Shown in pieces: positions 22,168 to 56,060 of a stretch of 64,000 bases of DNA (its first letter is position 1; the number at the start of each line of letters is the position of its first letter). Position numbers and translations under genes: made by a program. Source of the DNA: Nemertoderma westbladi (Eukaryota; Animalia; Xenacoelomorpha); the NCBI GenBank assembly GCA_032718475.1, contig JAUCBJ010005093.1, positions 1 through 64,000 on the forward strand, read 5' to 3'. The notes below the pieces were generated by a model that made no database searches, was not told the origin of the DNA, and saw only the letters and a list, made by a program, of their open reading frames with translations.

Positions 22168-22567
22168 ATGGATTCCGATTTATTTCAAAGATACAGTAAA
22201 CCTCAATATGGTGGTGCAGACTCTAATCTTGCTGTTTTTAAAGGTGGTAGAAGTATGAGAGGCTCGACGCAAGTTCCTGTTTTTCGAGGTGGTTCATATA
22301 TTGACCCTTACGGTCAACAAATTGGTGCATTTGGTCCAAACTTAAAACAACGTCGATTTCAACGTTATCGCAGAGGTATGCAGACAAATCAACACGGGGA
22401 AGGTATACTTACAGATGCTTTATCTACATTGAAAAAATTTGTAAAGCCATTAGCAAAAAAAGTTTTACAAAAAGCTTTACCATTTATCACAAAATTTATG
22501 AGACAACACGTAATACCAAAAGGTAAGCGTGTCTTACATCAGCAGGCTAATATGGTTATTAATAAAG
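22168..22567 (+). pseudogene. Basic core-like Polinton protein (PZ/pVII-like), truncated by element B
   Basis: QYGG, VFKGG, VFRGG and QHGEG cleavage-like motifs followed by an amphipathic Lys-rich helix; last codons of the listed ORF are LTR sequence. Confidence 0.7.
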
Positions 22568-23613
22568 TGTTAAACAAACTACCCCGGCCTAACCAATAAA
22601 GACACAAAACTGCTCTATTTATTAGACAGGGCAATCAGGAGCGTATTATTGCTAATGTAAGGGCTGCTAAATACAAAACCGCTACTCATCGTTAGATGGC
22701 GCTAACCTGCCGTCCGCTAATATATTTAACTAATTTTCTACGGCTCCTGCTAATTTCTTGTTCCTTTCTCTACCGATTACTCGATAGAGAGCTAATTGTT
22801 CGAATATATGAGCCACGCGGGAATAACCAAAACAATAACCCAAATCGGCTCCCTAAGCTGACTTAAAACAAGTATGAGAGACTTTACACTCAGAGTATAT
22901 TCTTACGGCCTAATCTAGCTGCTAAAACGCGTTAACAACAACGTCCTTTCTAATCTAATCTAATCGCATCTAATCGCATCTAATCGCTTCCCTAACAGAA
23001 TGTGTGAATGTGAGAATATTTAAATAATCAAAAATTGTTACAGTGTTTATTTCGGGACTCAAACTTACCTGCGGCTGGCTTTAGACCAGCAATTTACTGA
23101 TGCGCGCTATATACTGTATACTACGATGTGAATTATTGTCCGCTAATTCAAAAAACCGCCCAGCGTGAATAGTGTACGGTACTCTAAATTATTACCTTAA
23201 CTACCCTCCGCTATGGTGCGTACAAATTCTTAATTTTACTAAATAATTACAGTCACAAATATGTAACGGCGTACTAATTACTAAGTATTCCAGAGTGCGT
23301 AATTCTAATTTATTACTCAACGGGTCGCACTAGCAACAGCCTAAAATACCGTATTATTTTCGACCTAATCAGTAATTAATTACAGTAAACTAAGATATAG
23401 AAATCAATCAAAGGGAAAAGAGCGCCTATCCAAGCATTCGTGATTTTTTAGGCACACTTTAGTAACATACCAATCAGCGTAACAATATATAGTTTATACT
23501 TACCAATTTTAGTTCTTAACGCACAATTCACAATCAACAGTCAGATAGCAATTCGCAACGTAAAGCACGCAGGTCTCTCCCGGCTACATCTAGGCTTCCT
23601 AACTAACCCAATT
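22568..23613 (-). repeat. 3' LTR of element B (matched part; true LTR extends further right)
   Basis: Starts TGTTAAACAAACTACCCC on +; direct repeat of 39262-40357 with roughly 25-30 substitutions counted by eye. Confidence 0.95.
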
Positions 23614-25266
23614 CCTGTCCCCCTAATACTACAAAATAGAGACAAAATCTGGATCATCAGCCCCTAATTACTGCACCGGCGCACCTGACCCGCTCTACAC
23701 TGCGAACTTGCACCCGCAATAGTACTCCCACCAATGTTGCTCGTCTTTGAATCCTCCGCACCCCCTTCGTCGCTAACCCCCCAATGCGCCCGCCGCGCTT
23801 ACCGGTAACCTAACCCTCCATCAGAATGAATAGCTACCGTAGCGGCACATGCAAATCTCAAAGTCTGACAGTCTAAGAAATCCCGTAGGATTATTGTGTC
23901 GAAAGGAATCACATAGAACCATTTGCTAAAGGGTAGAAATCATAGTTCCAATTTGTAATTAACAGTAATAGTTGGGATTGATTGAGAAACACAAACAAGA
24001 ATCAACAGAAATTGCAAAGTAGCGAATCATTGCAAGAAAATCAAAAAGGCAGTAATTTACACAAAAAACTAAGCATCAAATAATAGTTTAACATGAAGGA
24101 TAACTGAAGTGAGGAGTAAGGTAGGGTGTGGTGTGGGATAAGGGGTACAGACACACCGGCAAAACGCCAATTTATAGGTGATTTGAGAGGAATGATGCAA
24201 TCGATCTCTTATTGGCTCCCCAATCCGAGCTATCATTAGACCAACCTGGAAGCAGTTAGGCCAATAAGAGAGCCGGATTGTGAACCTATTGCTCCCTGAA
24301 ATCGCAAATCGTTACCATAAAAGGTAATTTTCCCGATGCTTAATTTGGCGGTACTAATAATATCATGCACAAATGTTAATTTAGCGCAATTATAGAGAAA
24401 ATTAAAACCAGTAGCTAGCCCCATCAAGGCTAATAACAGCAAGCCCACATCCACGGTCCAACAAGAACTTGCTACCCTGGAACTATCTACTTATATCCTA
24501 TTACAAAATTACATAGGTAGGGCTACATACTACAAAATGGATGAGTTCAAAATATATGGGCGTTTCAATTTCCTTATCTAAATATCATTGCGCGTTATGC
24601 CTTATCTAAATAATTATACTGCATCACGGACTAATATATGATACTATATAATGAACTAATATATTATACTGTATGATGGACTAATATATGTACAGTATAA
24701 CGGACTAATATATTACATAATATAGGTACAGCGCCATATACCGTAACACCGCTCCAAGGGAAATCGAGCAATGTTTCCCTCCAATTGTAGAAGAGTGTAA
24801 GGCGATGTATACAAAACAAAATAAATCTCTTTCAAATAATCTAAATATCTTGGTACTATAATAATTCTACTATTTACAAATATTGCTATAGATATTGCAT
24901 AATGAATTGCATACAAATTAAATTTGCAAAATATTATCTCTTTCAAAGTTAACGATTATTACATACAAATTAAATTTACAAAAATACTGTTTCTCATTCG
25001 TTCTACATAATGATTACTACATACAAATTAAATTTACAAATTATTCACCTTTCAATATATAAAAATTTGCTAGGGCAGGTGAAAGGAGTAAGCCAAACCT
25101 GCAGGTTTGTCTCCCCAATCACCTCATTCGCCTCTCTCATAATATAAATTCAAATCAGTGCGACTAGTGTATATGAGTCCAGTCGGATATTTGCAAAATG
25201 CTACAATATACATCAGAGCGACGATGATGTATATATCTAGAGTCTGTCGCCCCGTGATACGATGCA

Positions 25267-28200
25267 TTACCGACCCGCTCCTGGGTTCTTCGGGCTCGCT
25301 CCCCTCTTTCGCCCCCTTCCCAGATACACCAATCGTCCTCCAGTCGATTCTGTTGACGTCGTCCGCGAGGCGTCACTCCTCGGAACCGGCGACGATGATT
25401 CCCGGCTCGTGCTTCTCCCTCGGCCTTGTCCCAATTGTCGTGCTCCTGTGGTCACTTCCGCCAACTCTTCCTTTTGCAATTGCACGCGCGCCTTCTCCGA
25501 CGCACCCTGCGCCTTGCGCTGCAATCGCTGTGCCTCTATAATAGAATGGTAGTGATCGTCCTTGACTTGACGCTTGTCTTGGACCTCTCCTCCTGGTTCC
25601 TTCCGTGAGCCTTGAGCTCCAACGGTCGTCACTGTGGGCGCTGCGGTTCGCTGTTCTTCGATTCTCTGAGCGTCAACGACACCACTGGTACGTGAGTCAA
25701 TAGGAATTCGTTGCGGTATTGAATAGCCGCCATCCTCCAATCTCCTCGCGCGCGCACCACCTTTCTAGTTTCCGAAAATAGACCTTTCGTGATACGGTCG
25801 CAAATAGCAACAAAGTTCCAAGTGTACTTATTATCCATATTTAGTTGTCTGAAGTATTCCCGAACAACTATGACTCCAGTGTTCTGTGGAAGGTCTTGAG
25901 CGGTCAATATGAGCTCCTGATATTGTGGCAAAGACTGTAGATACGGCTCGTACGCAACATGTGATGGGTCTACCGCCCAAAATCCATATCCCGCCTTAAA
26001 TGGTAACCAACGCATCTGCGCTTGGATGTGGTCAGCCACACTCTCCCACTTATCTAGCATCTCCCGAAGTAGGTTAGCGCTATGGTTTTGGAAGGAATCG
26101 TCTTGCAGTTGGCATCTTGCGCTACGATGTCCCTTTACTCCACAATATCCACATTGAGAAATGAAAACGGTGCACGTATGAAATGAATGGTCGGTCTCGT
26201 TGCACCAATGGCAGACCTTATGCGCCGCCTCCACTACCGCGTCGCACGATTTTTGATTGTGCCTTGTGCTGCCGCACAACTTGCACCTACGCGCTTGTGG
26301 AAACCAGGCCCTCTCGTATATGAGGTCTCCAATCGGTTTCGCACTTCCTTCTTTCCCAATGTCTAATACGATGTCGTCCTCTCCGGTTAAAGGTTGTCGA
26401 TCCGGAACGAAGTAAACATCCTCGCCCTTGTCCTCTATCTCCAATATTTCCTCCCGCGTTCGTTTCGGATATGTCTTCTCCACCGGAAGATCTACTCCAA
26501 ACACCTCTACTAACGTCTCCGGCCAACCCTCTCTAACAGGTCTATCAGCCTCCGAGTGGAAGGGAGTACCAAACCCGCGGGTTTGATTCCCGAACCACTT
26601 CTCCAAAGCTTCTGGCGTCGGATACTCCATCGACGGTCCGTCTCCCAAATCTCCGATATTCTGTCGATATATCCCTTCGAATATCGCTAATCCTCTCCTC
26701 ACCATCGACGTATTCTCTAGCGATTGGTTGAAGAACGGGGTTAAGAAACGCTTCATCACGTCGGATTGGATTCCCACTTTCGAGCGAACGTATTGATTTC
26801 CTCCGAACACCAATGGATGACGCTTCAAAACTCGCGCAACGATATCCGCTAATAAACAAGTTACCATGTTCGACTCAAGCACCAAATAATATTGTAGTGA
26901 CGCACGGGGTGGCGCGCATATGTTCCAATACACTAACGCTTGCCGCTTGAAGTGGGATTTGAACTCCGCTCCCGGTGGCGTGTTATATTCACCATACGCC
27001 TCCTCGTATTTCTTCTGCGTTTTCAACTTGAAGTCCCAATTATACAATAAATGTGCTATGAAGCCCACACCAGTCTTGGCAGAGTTGGGATACTCCCTAT
27101 AAATTCCAATGTCTTGTACCCATAGCAACAATTGTTTGGTGTCGACAAACGGTCTTGACAATCTATCTTCCAAATCAGTTATGGCGTTAAAGTCACTCTC
27201 CAAATCGCTCTGGACTCCCGATCCCACCTTGACGTAATCTTGGTTGAGAATAGCCTCTCTAACCTTCTTGGGTAACATCCTGGTGTCGATACGCTCTGCT
27301 CCGTGCATACCTCCTCGCCTGCATAGTGCATACCTCCAAAATCTGTTCCCTAGGATCCTTCCCTTTCCGATATTGTGTCGTGATTATGGGCTCCGGTCTC
27401 TCTCTATCCGCTCTTACGCGCATAAACACATGAGTCACACCATCGGCCGTGCGAATTTGAATGCACTTACTAGTCAAGCATTCCTGATGAGACCCTCCTT
27501 CATTGTCGTAGAACATCACTCTCCAATCCTGCAGTGATTCCTCCGTTTTCCTCCACTGACGCTGAATCTCGTCGGATGGGGTCCACATGCGCTCGATAGC
27601 CTTGTGGTCGTCATATCGGGTGTAAGATCCCTTTCTCCTCAGCCACGCCGGATCTACCTCCTCGTCATCTGGGAATGTAGCCACCGCGACCCATACCTTG
27701 ATGTACTTATCTAACCATCCGAATAACTTACTCTCCTTTCCCGGAGCTCCAATCTTATCCAATGTGTCGTAGTCTGTGATCTGCATTGGGACATCACGCA
27801 AGAACTTCGCGCATAAAACTTCCCGTAGACAGTCGACGTTCCAATGATCCGACATCCTCACCATCGGCAAGAATCTAATCGCTTCTCGCGACTCCGGGTG
27901 ATCTACCAATATCGCAGGTTAGTTGCCGTCGGAATAATACACCGGTCGGGGTTGAGATACGGCCTGTGGAACAAATCCGGTCACTCTCCTCGTCTCCTCT
28001 TGATGTCTATCCGCGGTCTTATTATATTCCGCTACCCGCGCTTCGAATAATTGATTCGCCTTCGCCGCTCGCTCCTCCTGCCGCAACGCATCTATGTCGT
28101 CCTGATGCTCAGGCGTGAGAGTTTTCGCTTGATGGGGCGAAGTAAACGTAGACCAGGGACTCAAGAGCTCCAAACCCGCGGGTTTGGTACCTGAGTCCCG

Positions 28201-28986
28201 TGCCGCTTCGCACCGCGCCTCTAGGTAGGCTCGGTATAGCGAAATGGCCGCTGCCGTCTCTATCAAACTAGGTGTCGAACAGGGTTTAATCTCCGTATAC
28301 GGATCTAATGTCGTAACAGTCGGCGTAATGGGTCTTGGAGGTCGCTTGCCGCTGAAGTCGATACTGATCATCGGGTTGCTCATTGGGTAACCTCCCTCGT
28401 TGTATCTAAGGAATTGGTGAGCTTGACATCGCGTTAATATCGGTTCAGGATGTTGCTCGTCCAGTCGGTCGGGAATCGCCACGTCTTGTTTATTCATGCA
28501 TTCACCACATTTGTAGAACAACTTGTATACACTGAAGACCTTTGACGTCTCTTGATCCTCGCCTCGAGTCCTCCGATACAGATGCATTCCATCGAATTGA
28601 TCTCGGACTGCAGGTAAAGGCTCTTCATGTCGTAAATACATGTTCATATGGTACAGCCGCGCAATCTCCTCGTCCGGGTCTGCGCTAATGTTGCATACGT
28701 CTAACGCGAAATCGTAGGGATACCGAGTGCGATACTCCTTCCGCAAAACTTCCATGCGGTCCCCCAACGCTCTCATTCTTTCCCTCCTTAATTCTTTATC
28801 GTAAGCGGGTTTATACTTCCCATTTAGCTCCATTACCGACCTTCCATGATAGTAAACATTCGAATCCTTACATCCTGGTCGGGCAAATGGCAGCTCCGCC
28901 TCCTCTCTGGCAGTAAATCCTCTCCGCGGTTGGGCTCTAATTCCCTTCTCCATTACAATCCGCATATATACATATATATATTCCAA
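25267..28986 (-). pseudogene. Accessory ORF of element B: unknown N-terminal domain, DEDDy-type exonuclease, three CCHC knuckles, basic tail
   Basis: 28986-27919 continues in frame past TAA into 27909-27259 (MFYDNEG), frameshifts to 27308-25629 (LPKKVREAILNQDYVKVGSGVQSDL; YYLVLES; CKLC, CHWC, CGYC knuckles), probable tail in 25740-25267. Confidence 0.78.
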
Positions 28987-29720
28987 TAAGTTCCGTTACG
29001 TAACTAATTACACTGTGGGTGAATCAGTTAGATGTCGCTGAAGGACAGACCTCCTGAGCCCCCCCCCCCCCCCCCCCCCCCCCCACCGCCTTCCAGCAGT
29101 TCAGGTTCGACTCTCTAGATCCCGTCTCATTCCTAACTATCCTCTAACCTATTCCCATGCATAGCGCAAAAACTTTTGAGATAAACTGGCCGTGACCCTG
29201 ACCAACTCACTTTTTGATGCCCAAACTACTCCCATTACTTGTACTAAACTACAGTAGTTAGAAAGGACAATAGTCTCAATGCTCGACTATACCAAACCCA
29301 CAGGTTTGATAATCGAACATCACACTTCACTGCAAACTACTGAGTGCGGTCCGTGTATGCCCTGGTGCTACTAACCTTTAGCACCTTAGTTGTACTGTAG
29401 GCACCAATCTGTGGAAGTTGCTAAACTCAATTCACACTCCTACGTAATATAGCCGTCACCATGGTTTCTAAATGCTATTTTCCAGGCTTCATGACTTTTC
29501 AAATTACTGTTTATCTATAGACGAATTCTAAATCGCATCTATACACAGCATCTGGAATTGTCTTGGGTTCACTTCTAATTTTTAAATTTTTTAATTTTCC
29601 AAAAATTTTGAAATAAAATTTTGTTTTGATACCCACCAGGCAAATCACCACAAACCCGCTCCTATGCATTTCCTTGTATTTGCATACGAGGAATGCATAC
29701 GAAGTGAGTTGCGTCCAACA

Positions 29721-32700
29721 CTAATTTTTATTTGAGGCAGGAGACAAATTATAATCTCCTGTCTCGATGCGTGTCTCTTCTAATAACACAATATCTTGGA
29801 CCGGTCGGTCCAAGGTGTGTAAACCATTAGTTTTACACTTCTTTGGGTGCGGACACTTGCACCTAATTTTCACAGTGACTGTGCGCACTATGTTTTGCAC
29901 GTCTGGGTGTATGTGCAAGATAACTCCCGTCTCCCAGTACTTTCTCTTGACAATTGGTTCGGTTATCAATACGTAATCTCCTCTTTGGAGGCTCCGAACC
30001 GTTTTGTACCACTTTGTTCTGGTAGATATGGTGGGAAGATAGTATTCCCGCCAATATTCCCAGAATGTGTACGCCACAAATTGTGTCACTTTCCAGCTCT
30101 TACGACTATATAGGTCGGCACTAATGGGTTCTGATGCCGGCACAAGAAATGCTGGACTCTGCATTAGCAAATGATTCGGCGTTAATGCAACACCGTCTGG
30201 CAACATAGCTATCGGCCTCGAGTTCAGGGTATGCTCGATTTCGATGAAAGCTGTGACCAGTTCGTCGTCGGTAAGTTGTTTGTTTACAGGCAATGTCTTA
30301 GCAATGGCCTGCTTTATGGAACGAACCAAACGCTCCCAACTTCCTCCTCTCCAAGGACTTTCTGGAGTATTGAATCTCCACTCTATTCTTTGCGGCAAAA
30401 GTGCTGCAGAAATTTCTTTATTCTGCGCTGCTCTGTGAGCCGCGTTCAACTCGCTATTCCCTCCGACAAAGTTTGTACCCTTATCAGAGTAGAACACCTT
30501 TACTAGTCCTCTCCTGGCCATAAATCTCTTTAAGGCCAGGAGCAGAGATTTGGTCGACATGTCTGCCACACGCTCGATATGTATGGCTCTACTAGCCATG
30601 CATGTCAGTAGCAGGCCCCATCGCTTGTGGGTCAGCCGTCCACTCTTTGCCTCAATCGGACCAAAACAATCCACCCCTGTATTCGTAAAGGGTGGGTCAT
30701 ATGCCTGCACTCTCGCTTCCGGGAGTTCAGCCATCTCCTGTTCCAATACTCTGGCGTTCACCCTCTTGCAAACCAGACAGGCGTCGTACATAGTGCCTAC
30801 TGCCCTGCTTGGCTGCAATAGAATGAATCGCTGTCTCGCTGCCGACAAACAGTGTAACTTTCCCGCGTGATGCAACCTCTTGTGTATATCCCATAGAATC
30901 GCTCTTTGCAATTCTATTGGGTGACTAGGGATTATCACTGGGAACCTGAACTGTGAGTTTATGTCGACAGTCTGGATTCTCGATCTATGACAAATCAAAC
31001 CCTTATGGATTAATGGACTCCATTTTCTAAGGGGTTTATAGAGAACTGGTCGTTGAGCCGATAATAGATGGAATTCCTTTGGGAAGGCACACATTTGATA
31101 ATGTTTCAAATGCTTTAATTCCGCTTGATCAATGTCATCCTCTGTCAGAGGTTGTTTCAATTTCTGAATTCGCTCACTATTAGTGCTCATTTGTTCTCCC
31201 AAATGTTTCGAATGTTTTAAACAAAGGTACGAAATGTATCGGCTTAACCACGCAGTTCTTTTACAAATTGTCAGCCAAGAGGCAGACGAATTTAGTAATT
31301 TGTCATAAATACTACATGGCTCTAACGCCAGCGACGGTTGTCCGCTAACTAATGGAAGTTTCGAATCCAAACCCACAGGTTTGGAAACCAAAGGCTCCAT
31401 TGTGTCGGTCATTTTCTGTCCGTCACTTACCAACTGTGACTCTGGTTTAGTCTGTAAGGGTGGTTTTACGTCATAACTTACCCTTCCTGACCTAGTAGTC
31501 ACGTAAGTCTGTAGGTCTGACAGGTCTCCAGGCCGCTCCAATGGCTCTTCAGGCCGCTCCAATGACTCTTCAGGCCGCTCCAATGACTTGAGTTTGGCTT
31601 TAGACTTTGACTTAGAGACTTTCTCCACTTTGACTTCTGCATCTTCTGGCATCGGATTGGTCACTATCTTTAGTCGCTCTGGCCAATGTTCCTGTGTCCT
31701 CGTTAGAAAATCAGGTCCATGCAACCAAAACTCCTGGGACTCTTCCTGACAGAATTCCGCCGGCATTGCACCTCTCGAAGTTATGTCGGCCGGGTTTAAC
31801 ACTCCCGGACAATGTCTCCATTGTTCCTTCGTCGAAAAGTCGACGATCTGAGCGCGTCTGTTGGCCACAAATGTCTTTAGTGCAATATTGTCGGCCGCAA
31901 TGTATACTAACACTAAGGATGCGTCCGTCCAATAAAATAAGGTCAATGTCGTGTCTAACTCCTCTGTTATCTGCTTACTTACCTCGACTGAAACTACTGC
32001 CGCCTGTAACTCTGCACGAGGGACAGTCATGTATTTGACCGGCATTGTCTTTGATCTAGAAGTCACAAAGGCCGTCTCAAATTTATCCTGACTTACCTCT
32101 CGGCGAAGGTAGGCTACCATACCAAAGCCGGTGTCACTTGCGTCACTGAATAGGTGGAGTTCGAGATCAGCTGGGAATACCAGCTGATTCGGAAAGTAGG
32201 AACGGGGTACATCTATGTTTTTCAATAGATGCAACTCGGCTTCCCACTCTCTCCACTGCTTTGCATGTATAGGAGATATTGGTTCGTCCCACTCTAGGTC
32301 GGACAACCAAATTTTCCTCATGCACGCTCGTGCCTGTAATATTACCGGACTGATAAAGTTCATCGGGTCAAATAGTCTACTTAATGTCGATAAGCAAATT
32401 CTCTTTGTCAAAACTTTGTCTGGACTACTGGGCTCAAATCTAACTCTTACCTGGAACTTGTCCGTGTTCGGGTTCCAAGCGAGTCCCAGTACTCGCGCCA
32501 TGGGGATGGGTTCTACCCCCAATTCAATGTCTCCGCTCCCGCGATCTTTCACCGGGAACGACTCTAATAGGGCCTCCGAGTTCGTAGTGAACTTGGTCAG
32601 AGGAAATCCCCCTGTAGCCAAGCACTCCTGCAGGCCGTGAGCCACTTCTATGGCTTGTTCCGCTGTGTCCTTGGACACCAATCCGTCGTCCATGTAGAAG

Positions 32701-35700
32701 TTTCTCAAGATGGACTCGATAACCTCTACTGGATACTTACCAATCTGGGCTGTTGCCGTTTTCTTTAGAACAAACAGCGTGCCATTTGGACTATCGCGGG
32801 CACCAAATATCCTAACGTACATTTGGTATGTAACCACTGGGCCGGATAAGTCTTCATTCTCAAACCAGAGAAATCGAAGGCTATCCTGGTCTGCCTTACA
32901 GGCTCTTACCTGGTGGAACATCGCCTCGATGTCACAAGTAAATGCGAATCGCCGCTGTCTAAAACGCAACAGTATTCCTATCAAATAATTGTTCAGGTTG
33001 GGTCCGTCCATCAACTCTGAATTCAGGGACATACCTCTGTAGACTGCTGCGCAGTCGTTGACTACTCGGACTTTGTCAGGTTTGTCAGGGTGAGTCACAT
33101 AGTGGTGTGGGAGGTAATAAGTCTGGTCTGTCACTAAGTCAGGGTCCTCTACCTTCCCAGCAAATCCCTTGGCGAAATAGTTGTTGATCTGGGCGCAATA
33201 CTTCTCCCTAATGTCCGGATTCTTCAACAACCGAGCCCTTACTCCGTTCAATCTTTTCAAGGCTAAGCTGTAGTTGTTCTCCAACTTAGGAGGTTGTCGA
33301 CGCCACAACATTCCAACTTCAAAATGTCCAGTCGGTAGCAGACGTATGGTATCTTCCATCATCTCCAGCGACCGTTTCTCATCAGTAGACATGGCTAGGT
33401 CATATCCACCGGGTTCCATTGCGTCCCTATCCAGCCATTCGACGGTTCTGGCTCCTGTCTCGAGGTCCTGGCGTATCAATTCCTTCTGTAGCTCCTCCTC
33501 ACTGTATTGGAAAATGTCTAGGTCTCGATATTTAGCCACTTGACCCTCCACTATGTCGGTATAAGTCAAAACGTTACTCAGATAGGTAGCGTGGGCCGCT
33601 GAACCAGACCCACGGGTCTGATAACAGTAGTCCTCGGGTTCACTATCTGTCCGGTCATTGTGAAGTGGTTCCGACAACCTAACATTATCGGGAATCAACT
33701 CCTCGTCCGACTCGCTAACGTCACTATAATGGTCAATACAGGTTCTCCTAAACTCGTCTATGTCTGGTGGTTCTACTAACGGTGGTTGAGTTATAGGCTG
33801 TAATCCGTCGTATCTATCCATTGGCTTGTCGCCACCTGTAAACTCATAAGACATGGGTACTCGTGTATACCAACCTAATATAGTCCTATGGGCATGTGGT
33901 CCATTGACATGCGGCTCAGCTGGTCTCGTTTCCCATATTTGGTGTGCGATCAGCTGTTCTGCACCAATCAACATAGAAACATTCCTATAACCTACCTGGT
34001 GTCTCGGTACTCTGAGTTTGTCAAAATACTCCTGTGCTATGGGACTCATCGGTGGCACCTTACCTAACTGCCTGCCGAACCCCTTCATAGCTAGACACTT
34101 GAATCCATCTAATGGCAAAGCTTTCCGTTCTTGTCGAGTGTGTTGGTCTCTCGGAAGTAGGGAATCTAGTTCTACAGAAATTCTGTGTCCCTTGAGGTCA
34201 CGTACCCCGTGCATAGACTTTAACTCTATTTGTATTTCCTCTGCATCCTGGAAGCTAGAAACGGCTCTCGCCACTTCCTCGTCTATATATGATAATGTGG
34301 ACGCAGTGTCCAACATCACATATATTCTTTTTGATCCCTTATCTCCAGTAAGTTTCACCGGAATCACGCTAAATATTTCCGACGTGGCCGATGATAAATA
34401 CGTCCGCGCGCTGGTCGATGAACTATCCGCAGTGAAACCTTGGCAGGTCACCTCTCTTGCGCTCGATTCGCCATCCTCGTCCGACGAACCTGGTTGGTAA
34501 CCATCGTCTTGAATGCCGGTATACGTATTTCTTCTTATCGATACGGGTTCTTCGCTCTCCTTCCTTTGAGGATTTCGCTGTAAGTAACGGTCCGTTGGGG
34601 TGTGGAAATCCGCATGTAGCAACTTGTGATGTAGTCTGCCGCATTCCATGCATCCGTCCTTGCTGTTCGGGCACTGCCGCCGTACATGACCTGGCGCAAG
34701 ACATGCCCAACAGGTGTCCAATGTCCGCACTTGAAATCTTCTCTGTTCCGAATTTAATTCTTTGAACCGTCTGCAACTATCCAACTTATGATCGTCAGAT
34801 CTTACCTCCTTTAGTAAGCAGAATTGGCAACCTACAAATCCATCCGGCAACTCCTGTTGCTTTAACCTAGGTCTATCTAACCGCTCACCTGACCATACTC
34901 GCGAGTCTGATCTAAAGGCTGGGGTACTCGAATTATATCTGTCTACTGAGTTAAATGTCACAGTGGTCCTGTCATCGTCAAAACTTACCATAGACTTACC
35001 GGTAACAGGTTTAGACTCCCACATATTCTCCTCTGAGAAGTTTGATTTCATCTCTGCTACTGCGTCTGTGGCTATCATGTCATGGATATGTTGAAGTGTC
35101 AACACCTTACTTTGACCCTCCAACTTATTCTCTAATTTGCGCCATTTCTGACTGTAACGCATGTTTAAACGTCTTATTACGCTCTTCAAAACTTCGGCGT
35201 GATCACCAAGATAAGGTAGATTCACCATCATCAAGATGTCTAATGCGTTCGAAATAGCATTCGCTAAGTTCAACAGCTCTAACGGAGTTGTAATCCTTCC
35301 GCCCTTACCCAAGTCTTCTACTATCGACTGTGCCATCTTGGTTTTATTCCCATAGATGTCGCTAAGCGTCTTCATTGCTAACTCAAACGCCCTTTCATTG
35401 CCGACGAAGTTGTCAGCAATGACTCTAGGTTCTCGATGGAGCATTTGAAGCAAATAGTTGAACTTCTCGTTGGGAGTAAAGGTGCTGTTGGTCAGCTGTT
35501 CGTCGACATAGGTTTTGAACGTCCTCCAATGCTTATGGTTGCCCATAAACTTCTGGGGTTGTTGCGTCGGCAGTCCTTGCCTAGCAGCAAACTTACCTAT
35601 GTCTCTAAGTGTTGCGTCGTTCCGGGTTAACAAATGGTTTAGTTCTGCAGGGTTATTAAGTCTGGTCCTTTCCCGGGGATTAAAACTTACCTGCTCCGCG

Positions 35701-36941
35701 TCCATCCTTCTTTCCTTATAGTTTCGGGACTTCTGATGTCTCATGTCATCCTCTTCATCGCTTGATTCAGTGTCAGTCCTTAGCGCTCGCGATGGTTTGC
35801 GCGCTGAGGCCCTGACCCAGGCATCTTGTATAAACTTCTCGGCCGAATTTTCGAAATCGGGATTATGGATAGTCGGGACAGGCATCCTTACCTGAGGTCT
35901 ATGTGGTATAGTTGCCTCCAATATGCGTACTCGTTGACTAGGTTGGACTTTATCTAACTCAGGCCTGCTAGGATTTGAATTACTTCTTACCTGGGCTGCT
36001 TCCTTTAACCGTAGGTTGCTAAGCATGTCCGTTATAGGTTGGATGTGCGGCGATATAGCTTGCGCTAAACTGGCACTTAACTCATCCCTCGTAATAAATT
36101 CCTGGCTAGGGTTCTGTTGTATAGTCGGCTCTATCTGAATAATCCGCTGTCTCTCATATGATCCCTCTTCCGGTTTATCCCGTAAGTTCTCCGTTGAACT
36201 GGGTCGGCGCTCCGTCCGCGTATTCCAAACCCGCGGGTTCGGTTCACCAAATACTCGTCCCGTTGGAGTTTCTCTAAACTCTTCATTCTCGCGTTCGGTA
36301 TGTAGTGGTGCGGTGTTCTGATGCCGTGGATTCTGTGCGATAGGTGAAGCACTAATACCAACTGGTGTGCGATTTGTAGAGAACGGTTTAGCGATCCGTG
36401 TACTCGTAATAGCTGGACCGGGTATAGGAATTCTGGTCATCGTCGACTCGCGTATAGTCGGAGTTCTTGCTTCCTGTTCGGCCTTCTGCAGTGCGAACAG
36501 TTCTCGCAACTCAGTACCTACACTCGCCCCACATTCTTCGATCATTCGCATCCCCTTCTCGGCGATTTCATTTGCCTTCCTGGTCCGTTCTTCGCTCTCT
36601 AAGTTTAATCTCGCACTTTCCAACTGCGCCAGTTTACGTTCTTCTTCTTCCTTCGCTCGTCTTGCTGCGCTCTCTTCTTCCACTCGCGCCTTCTCTTCAT
36701 ACAACGCTTGTCGCTCTTTTTTGATCTCGAGTTTGCGTTCTTTGCGTTCGCGTTCCTTGCGTTCGCGTTCAAGTTCGAGTTCGCATTCCTTCTGTTCACG
36801 TTCAAGTTGGAGTTCGCGTTCCTTGCGTTCGCATTCAAGTTGGAGTTCGCGTTCCTTGCGTTCGTGTTCAAGTTGGAGTTCACGTTCCTTGCGTTCGCGT
36901 TCCGCTTGCTCACGCTTACTTATTTCTTCCAACTCTCGCAA
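29721..36941 (-). CDS. gag-pol: BEL/Pao Gag-Pol polyprotein (open, 2406 aa)
   Basis: DUF1759-like gag, three knuckles, MLDTAS protease, FYMDDG, FSDAS, NPADITSRG, GVDCFGP, SDKGTNF, GSWERLV. Confidence 0.95.
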   Translation of the reverse strand: MRELEEISKREQAERERKERELQLEHERKERELQLECERKERELQLEREQKECELELERERKERERKERKLEIKKERQALYEEKARVEEESAARRAKEEEERKLAQLESARLNLESEERTRKANEIAEKGMRMIEECGASVGTELRELFALQKAEQEARTPTIRESTMTRIPIPGPAITSTRIAKPFSTNRTPVGISASPIAQNPRHQNTAPLHTERENEEFRETPTGRVFGEPNPRVWNTRTERRPSSTENLRDKPEEGSYERQRIIQIEPTIQQNPSQEFITRDELSASLAQAISPHIQPITDMLSNLRLKEAAQVRSNSNPSRPELDKVQPSQRVRILEATIPHRPQVRMPVPTIHNPDFENSAEKFIQDAWVRASARKPSRALRTDTESSDEEDDMRHQKSRNYKERRMDAEQVSFNPRERTRLNNPAELNHLLTRNDATLRDIGKFAARQGLPTQQPQKFMGNHKHWRTFKTYVDEQLTNSTFTPNEKFNYLLQMLHREPRVIADNFVGNERAFELAMKTLSDIYGNKTKMAQSIVEDLGKGGRITTPLELLNLANAISNALDILMMVNLPYLGDHAEVLKSVIRRLNMRYSQKWRKLENKLEGQSKVLTLQHIHDMIATDAVAEMKSNFSEENMWESKPVTGKSMVSFDDDRTTVTFNSVDRYNSSTPAFRSDSRVWSGERLDRPRLKQQELPDGFVGCQFCLLKEVRSDDHKLDSCRRFKELNSEQRRFQVRTLDTCWACLAPGHVRRQCPNSKDGCMECGRLHHKLLHADFHTPTDRYLQRNPQRKESEEPVSIRRNTYTGIQDDGYQPGSSDEDGESSAREVTCQGFTADSSSTSARTYLSSATSEIFSVIPVKLTGDKGSKRIYVMLDTASTLSYIDEEVARAVSSFQDAEEIQIELKSMHGVRDLKGHRISVELDSLLPRDQHTRQERKALPLDGFKCLAMKGFGRQLGKVPPMSPIAQEYFDKLRVPRHQVGYRNVSMLIGAEQLIAHQIWETRPAEPHVNGPHAHRTILGWYTRVPMSYEFTGGDKPMDRYDGLQPITQPPLVEPPDIDEFRRTCIDHYSDVSESDEELIPDNVRLSEPLHNDRTDSEPEDYCYQTRGSGSAAHATYLSNVLTYTDIVEGQVAKYRDLDIFQYSEEELQKELIRQDLETGARTVEWLDRDAMEPGGYDLAMSTDEKRSLEMMEDTIRLLPTGHFEVGMLWRRQPPKLENNYSLALKRLNGVRARLLKNPDIREKYCAQINNYFAKGFAGKVEDPDLVTDQTYYLPHHYVTHPDKPDKVRVVNDCAAVYRGMSLNSELMDGPNLNNYLIGILLRFRQRRFAFTCDIEAMFHQVRACKADQDSLRFLWFENEDLSGPVVTYQMYVRIFGARDSPNGTLFVLKKTATAQIGKYPVEVIESILRNFYMDDGLVSKDTAEQAIEVAHGLQECLATGGFPLTKFTTNSEALLESFPVKDRGSGDIELGVEPIPMARVLGLAWNPNTDKFQVRVRFEPSSPDKVLTKRICLSTLSRLFDPMNFISPVILQARACMRKIWLSDLEWDEPISPIHAKQWREWEAELHLLKNIDVPRSYFPNQLVFPADLELHLFSDASDTGFGMVAYLRREVSQDKFETAFVTSRSKTMPVKYMTVPRAELQAAVVSVEVSKQITEELDTTLTLFYWTDASLVLVYIAADNIALKTFVANRRAQIVDFSTKEQWRHCPGVLNPADITSRGAMPAEFCQEESQEFWLHGPDFLTRTQEHWPERLKIVTNPMPEDAEVKVEKVSKSKSKAKLKSLERPEESLERPEEPLERPGDLSDLQTYVTTRSGRVSYDVKPPLQTKPESQLVSDGQKMTDTMEPLVSKPVGLDSKLPLVSGQPSLALEPCSIYDKLLNSSASWLTICKRTAWLSRYISYLCLKHSKHLGEQMSTNSERIQKLKQPLTEDDIDQAELKHLKHYQMCAFPKEFHLLSAQRPVLYKPLRKWSPLIHKGLICHRSRIQTVDINSQFRFPVIIPSHPIELQRAILWDIHKRLHHAGKLHCLSAARQRFILLQPSRAVGTMYDACLVCKRVNARVLEQEMAELPEARVQAYDPPFTNTGVDCFGPIEAKSGRLTHKRWGLLLTCMASRAIHIERVADMSTKSLLLALKRFMARRGLVKVFYSDKGTNFVGGNSELNAAHRAAQNKEISAALLPQRIEWRFNTPESPWRGGSWERLVRSIKQAIAKTLPVNKQLTDDELVTAFIEIEHTLNSRPIAMLPDGVALTPNHLLMQSPAFLVPASEPISADLYSRKSWKVTQFVAYTFWEYWREYYLPTISTRTKWYKTVRSLQRGDYVLITEPIVKRKYWETGVILHIHPDVQNIVRTVTVKIRCKCPHPKKCKTNGLHTLDRPVQDIVLLEETRIETGDYNLSPASNKN

Positions 36942-36962
36942 CTTCGCGTCTAACTTACATGT

Positions 36963-38879: not shown

Positions 38880-39245
38880 CCTAACGGCCTAATGAACTGC
38901 TGTATTTGCGATTAGTAAACGCACTACCGTACATCCACTGTACGCAATACAGTAAGTAAAACAGTACACCAACCTAACAGCCTAATGAATACTGTGTGCG
39001 GTACAGCAAAACAAATGTATTTTCTACTGTACGCAGTAACAGTAATCACTGAATCAGCCTAATGTACTACTGTACTATTGTACGTGACCAGTGAATACAG
39101 TAATCTAAACTATCAGCCTAATGATACACTCTATACTGTTACAAGCAACAGCGAATCACGAGCCTTCACGGTACGCTGTACAGTGATCCTACCTAACAGC
39201 CTAAAGAATATACTCGTCACTGTACGCAGTAGGCCTACAGCAGAC
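38880..39245 (-). repeat. Degenerate tandem repeats in the 5' leader of element B
   Basis: Recurring CAGCCTAATG...ACTGTACGCA...ACAGTAA units. Confidence 0.7.
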
Positions 39246-39261
39246 AATATATGTGCTTTAC

Positions 39262-40357
39262 TGTTAAACAAACTACCCCGGCCTAACCAATAAAGACACA
39301 AAACTGCTCTATTTATTAGACAGGGCAATCAGGAGCGTATTATTGCCAATGTAAGGACTGCTAAATACAAAACCGCTACTCACCGTTAGATGGCGCTAAC
39401 CTGCCGTCCGCTAATATATTTTACTAATTTTCTACGGCTCCTGCTAATTTCTTGTTCCTTTCTCTACCGATTACTCGATAGAGAGCTAACTGTTCGAATA
39501 TATGAGCCACACGGGAATAACCAAAACATAACCCGAATCGGCTCCCTAAGCTGACTTAAAACGAGTGTGAGAGACTTTACACTCAGAGTATATTCTTACG
39601 GCCTAATCTAGCTGCTAAAACACGTTAACAATTACGTCCTTTCTAATCTAATCTAATCGCATCTAATCGCATCTAATCGCATCTAATCGCATCTAATCGC
39701 ATCTAATCGCATCTAATCGCAAAGACTGGGGTTCCCTAACAGAATGTGTGAATGTGAGAATATTTAAATAATCAAAAATCGGTACAGTATTTATTTTGGG
39801 ACTCAAACTTACCTGCGGCTGGCTTTAGACCAGCAATTTATTGATGCGCGCTATATACTGTATACTACGATGTGAATTATTGTCCGCTAATTCAAATAAC
39901 CGCCCAGCGTGAATAGTGTACGGTACTCTAAATTATTACCTTAACTACACTCCGCTATGCTGCGTACAAATTCTTTATTTTACTAAATAATTACAGTCAC
40001 AAATATGTAACGGCGTACTAATTACTAAGTATTCCAGAGTGCGTAATTCTAATTTATTACGCAACGGGTCACACTAGCAACAGCCTAAAATACCGTATTA
40101 TTTTCGACCTAATCAGTAATTAATTACAGTAAACTAAGAAATAGAAATCAATCAAAGGGAAAAGAGCGCCTATCCAAGCATTCGTGATTTTTTAGGCACA
40201 CTTTAGTAACACACCAATCAGCGTAACAATCTATAGTTTATACTTACCAATTTTAGTTCTTAACGCACAATTCACAATCAACAGTCAGATAGCAATTCGC
40301 AACGTAAAGCACGCAGGTCTCTCCCGGCTACATCTAGGCTTCCTAACTAACCCAATT
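39262..40357 (-). repeat. 5' LTR of element B, U3 side deleted; contains (ATCTAATCGC)7
   Basis: Match to the other LTR stops at CTAACCCAATT and runs directly into protease-coding sequence; no TSD. Confidence 0.93.
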
Positions 40358-40721
40358 AAAAACAAAAAGAGACTATGGGTTAATAGTAAATACCGATAAA
40401 GCGCATCTACCAGGTGTTCATTGGGTGGCTATATATATACGAGATAATGAAGCTGAATTATTTAATTCGTTTGGTCCAAAATATCCAAACAGATGTATCG
40501 AAAAATGGCTTGAGAAAAATTCAACAAAGTGGTGTACTACTCGCAGGCAATTTCAAGACCCTAGAAGGATCACATGCGGGTTATACTGTCTTTATTACTT
40601 GGTAAATCGAATTCACACAAATTATCCAATGAGAGCGTTTTCAAATAATGTGGAAATAAATGAAATAATATTATATAAATGGCTTGTTAATTATTATAAA
40701 ATAAACCAACAAGCGTTGTAA
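40358..40721 (+). pseudogene. Polinton adenain-type (C5) cysteine protease, 5'-truncated
   Basis: GLIVNTDKAHLPGVHWVAIY...FNSFG...QFQ...TCGLYCLYYL. Confidence 0.92.
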
Positions 40722-40765
40722 TTAATCATTTAACTTTTGTTTATCTAAATATATTATCAGATAAA

Positions 40766-41366
40766 ATGGATAATATTATTTTTGTCGATTTTCAATATTA
40801 TACGATAGACAATAAGGAATATCCGGTAGTATTTAAAGAATTTGCTATATTCGATTCTAATTACACCAAAACTAATGTAAAGACGTTTTTAATTAAAGGA
40901 CCTCCTGATATTAAGTTATCGGCATTAGATAAAGCCCACGTAAACAATTTACGGGACATGATTTCACATTTACCCTGGGATTACGGTGACATTTCGCAAG
41001 ATGACTTTAAAAAGTACATGAAGAGACATTTAAAATATAAAAATATATATATATGTATTCGGGTTGATGAAGCTGGCAATATTAATTTCCGAACTTGATG
41101 TACTTGCTCCAAAATCGATGGAGAAATTGGGAATATATCAACGGTATTACAACTATTTAACCCCTTGTCCCTTCCACGATCAATTTACTACAGTAGAAAA
41201 TAAATGCGCTTCCCACTTAAACAGAAAGGATAACTGTCTGCGGTACTGCTCCGCAAAACGAGTCGGAGGGTATGAATTGAAACGATTTTTCGTGAGAAAG
41301 CGATTAACTGAGACTGATGATAAACAGAAAGAAATAACTGTGGTGGAAGATGTACTCGTACAGTAG
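40766..41366 (+). pseudogene. DEDD/Maelstrom-like RNase H-fold nuclease (frameshift ~41050)
   Basis: IFVDFQ...FKEFAI...FLIKGP...SHLPWDYGD and C-terminal CPFH...KCA, resembling the MAEL E-C-H-C zinc motif. Confidence 0.6.
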
Positions 41367-47640: not shown

Positions 47641-48159
47641 CACATTTGATCACACTAAAAACAATAAGTGACATTATACACCATGTCCCGTAATATACAG
47701 TAGTGTCATTTTCTGATGACACGGACAGACCCCCCCCCCCCCAGATTTTTCTACAAATCTTTATCATATTGCTTGAAATTTGAAACACAACTAGTTCCAC
47801 TCACCGTCGATGACCCCATGAAGCCGGAATTTTGGATTTTGCCTTTACATTTTTTTTTATAACCGTTTTAAAAAAGTGTCTTTTGCGAAACCGCACCCTC
47901 CGCATCGTGGCCATTATTCACATTAGTCGTAATATTTCATATTTCAAATCATTAGATAGCTTGCGTTGCAAGGATTCCAAATATGTAACAATATCTGAAT
48001 TTCGTTGAGAAACAACTGAGATATAGGAGTTCAAATATTGAAAGAATTATCGTTCGCTGCAGGCCATTTATTCTATTTAATAAATACACAAAATTCTAGA
48101 ATGTGCTATTTATTTTATAAGTTGGCTGGCAACAGCGGTAATCCTATCCAATATATCTA

Positions 48160-49179
48160 TTGCATAGCTATTCATACTTAAACAAATGTTCCAGAATATC
48201 GTGTATTTATTCCTCCTTTAACAGCCGCTGGATTGGTTGTGTGGGGTGCGAGTGTTGGGTTTGCTACGAATGCGCCTTCGATGCCCTACCCTCCCGCCAG
48301 GTCAATGGTGCAGAATGCTTCTACGACCGAGCTAACTCCGGACACGACGAATATTCGCCATGGGTTTACCTGTGTCGCGACTGTCACAAATGCATTACTC
48401 GCAGTCGCAGCGATAAACCGAAGAGTTCCGGAATCACTCTTGAGGATCGTGTTGAACAGTTAAGTAATCTAGTCGCATCTCAATCGGACCTTATAAGAAC
48501 TGTGACTGCAGATCTGAAAACAAGGGAGGACTCCCTAGGTTGCGAGTCTAATGCTCCACGGGGTGTTCACAATAGTAACCCTGCACGTCTAGCACAGGTT
48601 GTTGAATCCTCCATTAAGGATGTACTTCACAATGAGCAAATTCGCAAAGAAGTTATTGTCGCTCGCCTACCGGAGTCCAACGGCCCAAGTGCAGACAGAG
48701 CAGCTGTAACAAAATTATGTGAAGAATTTTCGGTTGACCCGCTTTCCGTTGGTGATATATCAAGGTTGGGACGTCACTGTGAAGGTCGCGATCGTCTCCT
48801 GAAGGTTTCCTTCTCTTCCGACTTAGAGGCCCGAAACCTGCGAGTGAACCACAACCTGAACCGCTCCAACGAGAACGTCTCGGATATCTCGAGGAAATTA
48901 AGGATCCGACCAAGCCTCCCGGTAGGGGAACGGAAGTTGATGAGCGACCGATCAAAGTTAGTTCACTCACTGAACAATGCGGCAAACAACGAGGAGGTAA
49001 GTTTCAGTTTGCGATCGGACGGTTCAATTTGGAAGTTTGAACACCACGAAGATGGAAAGTGGAAACGCAACCGCCAATGGAACCATCAACAAGTTAGCGA
49101 TGACCATACGAGAAATCACGCGTCGGAATCATCGCGGCCCTCAGTCGGAGCTCTCTCCCAGGCCCAGGGAAACAAGTAA
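48160..49179 (+). CDS. LINE ORF1 (PHD finger, coiled coil, RRM-like region); true start uncertain
   Basis: WIGCVGCECWVCYEC...YLCRDC; VIVARLPES; RLG...RLLKVSF. Confidence 0.8.
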   Translation: MHSYSYLNKCSRISCIYSSFNSRWIGCVGCECWVCYECAFDALPSRQVNGAECFYDRANSGHDEYSPWVYLCRDCHKCITRSRSDKPKSSGITLEDRVEQLSNLVASQSDLIRTVTADLKTREDSLGCESNAPRGVHNSNPARLAQVVESSIKDVLHNEQIRKEVIVARLPESNGPSADRAAVTKLCEEFSVDPLSVGDISRLGRHCEGRDRLLKVSFSSDLEARNLRVNHNLNRSNENVSDISRKLRIRPSLPVGERKLMSDRSKLVHSLNNAANNEEVSFSLRSDGSIWKFEHHEDGKWKRNRQWNHQQVSDDHTRNHASESSRPSVGALSQAQGNK

Positions 49180-52040: not shown

Positions 52041-52321
52041 CAAATATCTTTTTTGTCATTTTTTTTATTGTTTTAGTTTTTCGTCTCGTTTTTCTTTTTA
52101 TAAGTCTCAATTTTATTAGAAATTTAAAATATTATAGCAATTTGTAAAGTGTACTGTATGTGCATTACAGTATATTTTATGTTCACTTTATAGTACCCAA
52201 ACTCCCGTAAGTGCCTTGAGCCTGGGCAGTTTCCCTCCCTCGACCTTTTGTGTATTCTTTGTTCTGTATGTATGTTTCTATGTTATGTGTATTTCACATA
52301 TTTTAATATCGAGTTTTTAAA

Positions 52322-52352
<31 letters not shown>

Positions 52353-54199
52353 AAAAGACGTAACGCCGTTCTGTATATCGTTCTTTATAATTGCCAAACC
52401 CTTTATTGAATAATTAATTAATAATTTCCCTACGCATGATAATATGGTAGTGGCAGGCTACAATCTCTAACACAGTTTGATTGAATACAATTTTGTTGTA
52501 GGCAATTGTATACAAATTAATAACAATTAAAACGTATAACATGAATTGAATTTTTTGTATAATGACCAGTCAGGAACAAATAATGAAATAAACAGCAAAA
52601 TCAAAGTAAAATATCACAGAATAAGTAAACAACAAATATATGGCCCATTACGTAAATGGTTTTGATATTTCGGTTAAAGTTAATCACAGACTTAAAAAGA
52701 ATATGTTTATGACGTAATAATAAGTGACAACAACGTAATGAATTGCATCAATTAAAATACTTTGAGTTAATATTATTCACTAGATTTATAGATCTAATTT
52801 GTAGTCTATATAAAATAATGTACATATAGTGGGTTTAATAAATAATACCTCACAACAATGTTAAATTATTAAAAGGAGCAGGTTACAGTTGGCAGTTGGC
52901 TACAGAGGCACATTATTATTATATCCTTCGGGTAAACAAAAAAAAAACAGGTTACAGATTTATTTCTGGGAGAGTAATCAGTACTTATTTGAATCGATAT
53001 CTCCCTGGAGAGGGATGATTTTGATTGCATCGCAAATCCTCCCTATCTGAACAAATCATATTTAAAAAATTAAATGTTAATTATAATTATAGCTGAGTGA
53101 GCTTAATTTATTAAACTGTAATAATAAATCAATAGGCCTAGGCGCTACAAAAGTACAATTTAAAAACTGAAACAATAAATAGTTTGTAATAACAGTTAAT
53201 GTGAAGTTTTCAAATCGAAATCGAATCGAAAGTTTTGTAGTAATGCTGTCCCTGCGCCCTGCCCCTTCAACTGAAAACTGGGGACCTCCCAATAATAAGA
53301 ATTCCAATCTTTAGTCCTCGGCTGTTGAAATCCACCATCCGTACAGCAGTACAGACAAATAAGTCAATCCCCCACCTGTCAGTGCTGGTTTAAGGGGACT
53401 TCCTGGTCCTGGCAGACTTGAATTCTGTAATTGGTAGGTCTAATCACTAATGCAGTAATGTGTGAATCCAGAGGGTAAAGGCGAACTCGCATTCAGGTAG
53501 ATATGCTTTATTTATGAGTTCAGGTTAAATAAATCACAAAACCAACTGAAAACTATAAAACCCAAAATATAAGCTACTGTACAGTGCAGTAGGCCTGCAG
53601 TAACTACACTACAGTAATATAGAGATAGGCCTTGCAGTACAGCAGTATAACAATACATATACACAATAAACATTGAATACAGGCATGCCAGACAGCCAGA
53701 ATGAGTATTGTACAACATACCATCGGCCTACTGTATGCCATTTACATGTGGAAAATTCCTCCATTACCGCGAATTTTAAAATTAGCCAATCATCAATCTC
53801 AGATTAGATAATAGAAGTGACAGCGTCTATCGCATAATGTTTATTTTATGTGACAAAATAACATTGTTCTGATATGTAACAAATCATGTTCTTAAAATGT
53901 TAGAACTAAACACTTATGTAAAAGCTTTTGCTGAATTGTCCGGTTATTTTTCCTTATTTTTCCCGTAAAATACTCTGTAGTTGGTTTACCAGGCATAAAA
54001 AGGCCGTGTCCTTGCTGTACTGGTGTTTTAGCGGACATAAAAGCTATTTCTTCTGTATTTGTACTTTAGAGGACATAATCCGTAATTCCGTGACGTAAAA
54101 GCTCGATACTCTTGAAAACAGTGTCGCTACCATGACGACAGCTAGCAGCTGATATTGCCACGACGTTTCTTTGTTTCTCTGTTCTCTCGTTGTTCAGGT

Positions 54200-54265
54200 T
54201 GACCAATCAGAGCGTTTGTTGTCTTTGTGTTGGAGGTATATACAGAACTAGAGTAGTTCAGTGTT
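54200..54265 (+). promoter_or_regulatory. Possible Pol II promoter (CCAAT, TATA-like, Inr-like)
   Basis: GACCAATCAG ~54201, GTATATAC ~54236, TCAGT ~22 nt further downstream; motif spacing only. Confidence 0.35.
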
Positions 54266-55545
54266 ATGTTTTTGCCCAGAGCCTAAGAACCGGCTTTGGC
54301 ACCTCCGTGTTTTCAGTTTTTAGTCTTACACTAGTAGGTTTAATTATAAAGGGCATATATCCTTTAACTCATGGAATCACTGCTGACTGATCATACATGC
54401 TGACTGCTGAAACATTGCAAACTCATAACAATCAGTGTTTTCATTGTTGTTTTATACTGCTATTTACTGTCAGTTCTTCATAACATGGTTGATGAATTAT
54501 TATATTTGGAATAACGATAAATAACCCCGAAACCCAATATTCTTGATATACCGAAGGTAAGAGAGAAGGGTTACAGATAAACGATTGTGACTTATGTTAA
54601 AGTGGTTTGAAGTGAATCTAATGTTATTTGATAGACCCTACATGAGTCAGTCCGTGTTCCTTTTATATGTGACTAAAATCAGTGAAGATTGGCAAATTAG
54701 TGTGCAGTATTGTGCAGCATTGTGTATGAGTGAGTCTGTTAAAGAAGCAATTCCTAAAGAATGCGCCATATATGTGAATTATAATTAAGCCATATCGTTG
54801 TGAGTAGTTTAAGTCATAACTCTGTTTATATAGATAAAGCGCCACGTCCTAAAGGAACTGTTAATATTACCGAAGGTGAATAATATTGTCAGAGATTATA
54901 TAATACTGTCAGTCGAATAATACATTAGGCTTACATAGCAATAAAATTAAACCGTCGAACCCAATCTCCCAGGAATATCCAGCGGGTGAATGATCGCGCA
55001 CAGATTGGTTTCGACTAGTGTAGTGAATCAAATACTTGTCATAGACTAAAAACCGATTTAATATCTAGCAGACATCTTAATTTGGTGGGTTAAACTGCCA
55101 AAGGTCTGAAAGCGCGAACATTAAAGGATATAGCTTCTTTGTTGCAGTAAGCAATAAAGTTGAAAGTACCGGTCAACCGGTAAACCTGAACCGGTACATC
55201 TATAGGTCGGTAGGCTCAACCGTTAGAACCGGTACATCTGTGGGTCAGTAGGCCCTACTGCTAGAACCGGTACTTCTGTAGGTCCATAGGCCTAGCTGTC
55301 CTAACCGGTGCTTCCGTATAAGTACACTAGTATTATTCGATTTGATTGTTGTATACCGGTAGGCTGTTTGAGGGATTAGGGATTGATCACCCCTTATACC
55401 TTTATATGGTTTACTTATCTCTGTCAAGTTTTATTTATCTGTAGGCCAGTATTGAACAGAAGGCGTGTAAGCCTGATCAGATTGTACAGACGATTTGTAG
55501 GCTGAGCTGTTGTCTGATTGCTGTTAAGTCCGAACGAATTGCAGT

Positions 55546-56060
55546 GTGTGTAGATCACCTGTCCGATTAAGTACGATTAGGCAGTAGGGGCAGCGAACGC
55601 TGTAAGGTAAACCCCCAACTAAAGAATAAGTCGCACTACTGGGTTAGAGCGCATACTCCCTAATCATTTCGGAGTCTGCATGTCCTGAGGTTTATTTAGG
55701 CTTGAGAGTAGTCTGCCATCGTTTAGTCTGTACTTTGTTTGTGTAAGTCTGTACGGGTAGCGTATAATTTTATTTAGATAATTTGTAGGCTGGATAGTTG
55801 TCTGGCTGTTATTAGGTCTGAACGGATTGCCGCGTGTGTAGATCATCTGTCCGATTAAGTACGGTTAGGCAGTAGGGGCAGCGAACGCTGTAAGGTAAAC
55901 CCCCAACTAAAGAATAAGTCGCACTACTGGGTTAGAGCGCATACTCCCTAATCATTTCGGAGTCTGCATATACCGTAGTTTGTTTAGGCTTGATAGTAGT
56001 CTGTCAGTGTTCGGTCTGTATTTTGTTTGAGTAGTTTGTACGCGTAGCGTAATATTTATT
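55546..56060 (+). repeat. 288-bp-period duplication in the leader of element C
   Basis: GTCCGATTAAGTACG...GGAGTCTGCAT at 55561 and 55849, ~135 nt nearly identical. Confidence 0.9.

Follow-up and report, generated by a model that had tools for sequence, protein, structure and literature searches.

Element B, a BEL/Pao retrotransposon on the minus strand of a Nemertoderma westbladi contig, probably primes its reverse transcription with RNA of its own long terminal repeat (LTR). A probability of about 0.75, judged from sequence and predicted folding, is assigned to this reading with two forms of primer taken together, namely a contiguous LTR segment and a splice-built junction. The contiguous segment of 9 nt by itself is given an even chance of being the primer. 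The strongest support for self-priming in B is comparative and comes from the sequences of its relatives. The window is the whole stretch of DNA that was analysed, 64,000 nt in length.

Classification and features of element B

DUF1759, Peptidase_A17, an integrase zinc finger and DUF5641 were matched by domain search in a single gag-pol frame of 2413 codons (29721..36962, minus strand, as are all features of B below), which identifies B as a BEL/Pao element. The full arrangement of such elements (Gag/DUF1759, then protease, RT, the RNase H/Peptidase_A17 region, integrase and DUF5641) was found in B, and putative acidic motifs of RNase H can be read in the translation. An in-frame stop near the start of gag divides the frame from one of 254 codons upstream. 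The best homologues are BEL/Pao polyproteins with about 40% identity, and the named ones are mostly from marine invertebrates; of the 285 homologues, those listed carry PF05380. With its extra 3' reading frames (25267..28995) B is about 17.8 kb long. These frames contain repeated Cys/His knuckles, as do those of the neighbouring element A (8758-11379), to which they are weakly similar (23% identity over 154 aa, E 9e-10). The extra frames of both elements gave no Pfam match and were not env-like by any test run.

The LTRs of B were recognized as a direct repeat. The portion common to both copies extends over 39262..40357 at the 5' end, where the 5' side may be cut short, and over 22568..23613 at the 3' end; the copies (40357-39262 / 23613-22568) differ by 26 mismatches in 1045 aligned nt. 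A G-rich purine tract adjoining the repeat boundary (23614..23623) is the candidate PPT. The CA end of the LTR is confirmed by contigs, and its 5' start is uncertain: depth profiles, which are summed contig depths, did not place it, and a target-site duplication was absent at all five candidate starts tested. A scan with Rfam gave one sub-threshold match on the element strand (E 0.049), which was taken as chance. No close copy of B was found in viral contigs, nor in metagenome contigs by the exact 23-nt pattern of the LTR end.

Insertion site and neighbouring elements

B splits a Maverick/Polinton-like element with integrase, ATPase, core-type gene and protease (13600-22567 and 40358-41300). 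The label is inferred from an integrase match, a weak ATPase match and a putative protease motif. The sequence between the core-type gene and the protease gene of these flanks is missing. The flank contigs run 11 bases into the end of the 3' LTR and then diverge, so that this junction has 11 bases of microhomology. Together with the missing sequence, this suggests an irregular integration or a later deletion. Within the Maverick-like element lies a 2-kb insert (17854-19854) with inverted ends of 71 bp and an internal tandem array of 22-bp units.

Element A is the 3' part of a BEL/Pao element on the plus strand. Its 3' LTR (12090-12450), which starts after a purine tract with a run of G and contains an initiator motif besides CCAAT and TATA-like motifs, seems to break off after about 360 bases. 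A LINE-type element with endonuclease, RT and an AAAT-repeat tail is located at 48142-52350.

LTR end and primer binding site

An earlier note on this DNA had reported that no TGG, the usual start of a tRNA primer binding site (PBS), follows the 5' LTR of B. This was borne out: the LTR ends ...TTTAACA at 39262, the PBS is placed in the 9 nt flush with that end (39253..39261), and the first TGG is met 172 nt on, at 39090. Since the final 11 nt of the 3' LTR are identical to sequence belonging to the flanking gene, position 39262 fell under suspicion of being a mere deletion breakpoint. This was rejected, since unrelated contigs end at the same base: among contigs aligned on 39150-39390, two (one X5, one X3) have 39262 as their last matching base, followed by 255+ and 86 nt of unlike sequence. 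The same PBS is present in contigs of two runs, and one contig retains the 9-nt PBS and diverges at the very next base. Copies with a TGG site, which according to the earlier note would speak against self-priming, did not turn up among 17 loose ends listed of 41.

Indels in the listed contigs fall at 39241-39250 and none at 39251-39262, a pattern that is only weak evidence of constraint because the density of variants is low. Two X3 contigs of sister subfamilies align over the PBS and leader but differ in U5 beyond 39269-39271. The leader after the PBS (39250-38850) consists of decayed tandem units, and one X1 contig repeats a unit including the PBS.

A contiguous complement in the LTR

The exact complement of the PBS that had been claimed for the LTR is indeed there. 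The 9-mer is found at 39253-39261 (minus), 40304-40312 and 23560-23568, three matches in the window; the latter two represent a single LTR site in its two copies, and a shuffle count on three matches is no test. The copy in the 5' LTR (40304..40312) is the candidate self-primer. The chance of such a match, put earlier at about 0.4%, was reproduced with a strictly flush site (0.5%, 21/4000 simulated LTRs at offset 0) but rose to 4.9% (197/4000) when offsets 0-5 were admitted, and to 13% (40/300 PBS shuffles) when one G-U pair was allowed; the bare 9-mer is therefore suggestive and not decisive alone. With nine pairs it is shorter than the match of any relative (10-15).

Duplex folding agreed with the earlier proposal of further pairing with U5. 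The segment 40291..40303 is predicted to pair with the U5 end (39262..39276) in an extended helix of 9 bp, a 1-nt bulge, 3 bp, a 2-nt bulge and about 10 bp, with a predicted energy of -24.3 kcal/mol and four G-U pairs counted from the sequence. This energy was reached by 2 of 100 other 26-mers taken from B and by none among 150 shuffled targets. Because U5 differs in the two X3 contigs, the G-U-rich extension is not fixed across subfamilies. In the fold of B the 9-mer and the PBS are predicted to pair with a probability of 0.92, against at most 0.12 in 14 shuffled-PBS controls, and folding of whole leaders gave 0.87-0.99 in all six leaders containing the 9-mer, whether the rival junction described below was present or not, although long-range folding across 1.05 kb is unreliable.

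Primer binding sites of related families

Relatives were drawn from 80 metagenome loci, 28 of them with a terminal repeat; ten families have an LTR 3' end fixed by both copies, after exclusion of loci whose end was truncated or had decayed, or whose repeat was an overlap of the assembly. A TGG site is present in one of the ten (L006) and absent in the other nine. In eight of these nine the PBS matches a splice junction in the family's own LTR and in one a contiguous segment, the letters differing from family to family. The PBS of L004, L008, L022, L053, L057 and L060 pairs over 11-15 bases with the exon-exon joint (0/300 shuffles each), and the introns predicted there follow the consensus GTAAGT...YAG with lengths of 76-164 bases. 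L041 has a junction match of 10 bases with a weaker donor (0/300 shuffles); that of L025, also 10 bases, failed the acceptor filter in the shuffle test and passed unfiltered. The contiguous match of L078 has 10 bases and was reached in 8/300 shuffles. When each primer was compared with every PBS, the match was 10-15 bases with its own and at most 8 with the others, except between the sister families L053 and L057. The covariation between related families that the earlier note had proposed to look for is thus seen between families.

In the relatives the primer segment is found 100-290 nt inside the LTR. Six of the eight junction families have a poly(A)-type hexamer downstream of the primer; none was found in the other two. 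Strand transfer would require such a layout, and the hexamer counts for self-priming; B has one downstream of its primer too. The predicted primers of eight of these families (L004, L008, L022, L025, L041, L053, L057, L060) and of L018, L047 and L055 end in AC or AT; these ends pair with GT or AT 0-5 bases after the LTR end, and they may mark the cut site.

Further candidates came from less strictly controlled scans: L016, L018, L047 and L055 (junction) and L032 and L070 (contiguous, with an LTR end not independently fixed). A blind junction scan upstream of the longest frame gave matches in 6/47 loci, against 1/47 in reverse-complement controls, and a second scan gave a match of at least 10 nt in 8 of the 11 loci whose LTR start is known; the match of L005 in that scan is situated beyond the LTR end and probably due to chance. 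L005 also shows, by eye, a contiguous match of 11 bases adjoining a decayed end. Of 34 further loci scanned blind, 8 were too short, and the remaining 26 gave one match versus two in the control. When the tree was given an arbitrary root on A, B branched outside all 80 loci (35-43% identity). The relatives therefore show the behaviour of the wider group and not that of B's own family; no close relative of B was seen among the 80 loci, nor covariation inside its own family.

A possible splice-built primer in B

That B itself is primed by a junction RNA is doubtful but credible. Removal of 40264-40134 would join 40269-40265 to 40133-40126, and this predicted junction, which does not appear in the earlier note, would pair without interruption over 13 bases, the final 3 of the LTR and 10 of the PBS. 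The exon-1 arm (40265..40269) precedes a weak GT donor at 40264, the predicted intron (40134..40264) has 131 nt, and the partners of the exon-2 arm (40126..40133) would be the LTR's final 3 nt and the first 5 nt of the PBS. It was the best of 422 junctions tested in B, by a margin of 3.3 kcal/mol (6/300 in shuffles), and the strongest duplex of B, with -20.3 as compared with -15.4 kcal/mol for the contiguous segment. Its acceptor, which ends at 40134, is strong and pyrimidine-rich, family L025 has the same 5+5 layout flush with the LTR end, and the junction form is the one used by eight of nine non-TGG relatives, seven of these at 0/300.

Against these points, the splice at 40264/40134 is a prediction, with a donor that matches one of the four consensus positions after GT. 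When both candidates are in the RNA, the 9-mer is predicted to win by 0.87 to 0.10. In addition, a deletion of 1 nt in the exon-2 arm is carried by three X3 contigs (about a quarter of the summed depth) and one X4 contig, and no matching PBS deletion is listed. Over 1.65 kb upstream of the 3' repeat, the weak donor was not bettered by any canonical one. A consensus donor 17 nt further on (starting at 40247) was rejected as the primer donor, its match being only 8 pairs. The contiguous and junction candidates have core letters in common and are alike in 21 of 30 columns downstream, which may reflect a duplication or only pairing to one common target.

A contiguous match in element C

Element C (53865-61900, plus strand) is the 5' part of another BEL/Pao copy, with a candidate LTR of 1.25 kb. 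Its RT domain was not found in the window; in the long frame, gag-protease is followed directly by the end of RNase H. The candidate PBS (55121..55132, plus strand) directly follows ...GAACA (55120), a candidate LTR end, and is complementary over 12 contiguous nt to 54356..54367 (plus strand, exact match), about 100 bases downstream of C's initiator motif. The match was spotted by eye, by analogy with B, before scoring. It is the best among 11 AACA sites, and simulated regions reached it in 1/600 (offset 0) and 9/600 (offsets 0-5) cases, or in 26/600 and 79/600, respectively, if any CA may be the end of C. Folding of C did not favour the 12-mer, and a junction scan of C gave only AT-rich matches far from the candidate end. 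Because the 3' LTR of C is outside the window and other pairings are preferred in folding, the 12-mer is supporting and not proving. B and C together suggest that an intron-free form of the primer coexists with the junction form. Rather unlikely is the further reading that B is switching forms, a decaying splice-built primer having been joined by an intron-free copy of its letters gained upstream, within a wide marine radiation of self-priming BEL/Pao elements that mostly use spliced primers.

Transcription start and proposed mechanism

The earlier note had also stated that no TATA box lies upstream of the 9-mer. This holds inside the shared repeat but not upstream of the 3' copy, where CCAAT (24215), ATCGAT and TATAAA (24176) form a module (24171..24215) that would be a candidate promoter should the true LTR extend beyond the shared repeat. 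It is the best CCAAT/TATA module of B and lies about 600 nt upstream of the 9-mer, in sequence seen solely at the 3' end. A has a similar module in its 3' LTR (12298, 12352, initiator 12378), and so does C at its 5' end (54203, 54237, initiator 54258). At 40312 neither an initiator nor a TATA motif was found.

Two placements of the start are near even. In one, the true LTR starts near 40354 with a U3 of only about 40 bases, which fits the G-rich tract (23623-23614) at the repeat boundary; in the other, the module at 24215/24176 is the promoter, the 5' LTR has been cut short, and the 9-mer lies about 580 bases into the unspliced transcript. A third placement, ranked lower, uses a TATAAA that the 3' copy has at 23498, downstream of the 9-mer; this motif is a caveat to the contiguous primer in that its use as promoter would leave the 9-mer outside the RNA. 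A Tf1-type primer at the extreme 5' end is doubtful, since the best promoter motif is about 600 nt upstream. What stands of the earlier reading is tRNA-independent self-priming, which agrees with the family-specific PBS/LTR matches of the relatives and with the folding of B. Its Tf1-like start at or just above 40312 is doubtful: that site has no promoter motif of its own, the best module is far upstream, and the primer segments of the relatives are well inside the LTR.

With the contiguous segment as primer, the 9 nt would fold onto the PBS as its exact complement and be cut at their 3' end, after 40304, probably by the RNase H of the element. Reverse transcription would then copy from 39262, and transfer to the 3' end of the RNA would proceed via the region between the cut and the downstream poly(A) signal. 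The primer would probably be internal to the 5' leader, whereas that of Tf1 is formed by the first 11 bases.

Other explanations

It is unlikely that the match in B is due to chance, with some other real primer in use, or that the PBS of this copy has decayed. The lenient chance of 5-13% is easily met when many elements are scanned, and the copy is irregular: it lacks a target-site duplication, host sequence is absent between its flanks, and it has the in-frame stop near the start of gag. On the other side, contigs of two runs have the same PBS, two separate complements (9 and 13 nt) and the U5 extension come together in B, and the pattern recurs repeatedly in the group. Priming of B by a host tRNA fragment, such as a 5' half of tRNA-Val(TAC) ending at the anticodon, is very unlikely. 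It is conceivable because 2 of the 60 phage loci that were scanned, out of 80 listed, are tRNA-Val(TAC) genes with the 9-mer in the anticodon arm, ending at the anticodon's last base; copia lineages are known to use half-tRNA primers (PMC6317226), and sister subfamilies with a different U5 still align over the PBS. Against it, these genes are on phage contigs and do not belong to the host, the half-tRNA primers described in PMC6317226 are cut in the anticodon stem and not in the loop, and nine related families have nine different non-TGG sites, each tracking its own LTR. No tRNA genes were found within the 64-kb window.

Comparison with known systems

Self-priming in Tf1 requires an adjacent R-U5 stem; that of B is predicted, is rich in G-U pairs and involves a U5 that differs in sister subfamilies. 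The primer of Tf1 needs no splicing, whereas most relatives of B have a junction primer. Like B, the Ty3/gypsy elements of the Tf1/sushi group, among them Tf1/Tf2 of S. pombe and Tj1 of S. japonicus, have no tRNA PBS, and their PBS complements LTR-derived RNA beside the LTR end; in that group an RNase H cut has been proposed or shown to release the primer (PMC7175516 and PMC4600332). Complementarity of the PBS to an LTR segment is found in B with 9/9 pairs and the fold probability given above, but B has the domains of BEL/Pao and not of a chromovirus, and so stands outside the Ty3/gypsy phylogeny of the group. On the self-priming reading, B works like Tf1 but is outside the Tf1 group. Self-priming has been predicted from PBS/LTR complementarity alone, as here for B, in the plant lineages Tcn1 (gypsy) and TAR/Houba/Osr-1 (copia), which belong to other superfamilies and hosts than B; the available part of that paper does not mention a splice-built primer (PMC6317226).

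B shares with the Belpaoviridae of the ICTV the set and order of domains, LTRs ending in CA and the purine tract (PMC8742986). According to that family's profile, the PBS has 18 nt and complements a host tRNA (Arg or Gly), LTRs measure 0.2-1.2 kb and genomes 4.2-10 kb, and BEL/Pao replication is treated as tRNA-primed and poorly understood (PMC8742986); B, which is far longer and has extra 3' frames, does not carry an 18-nt site matching a tRNA 3' end. A tRNA-Tyr PBS is given for Achilles in PMC4580426, and the words 'primer', 'PBS' and 'tRNA' are absent from the main text of PMC3118150. Searches of mostly open-access literature, by their listings, turned up no description of self-priming in BEL/Pao, nor of a primer built there by splicing.

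Implications

If self-priming in B is true, a third LTR superfamily joins those in which it is known (gypsy) or predicted (copia). Some Cer elements of C. elegans have been described as encoding a primer-like RNA themselves; that would be a non-tRNA case of another kind within the BEL/Pao superfamily. Self-priming would let the elements escape control by tRNA fragments, and it would account for why annotation based on the PBS can overlook them. The junction form of the relatives, if true, would make host splicing an obligatory step of replication, and the coexisting intron-free form in B and C would offer a way to study the conversion of one form into the other.
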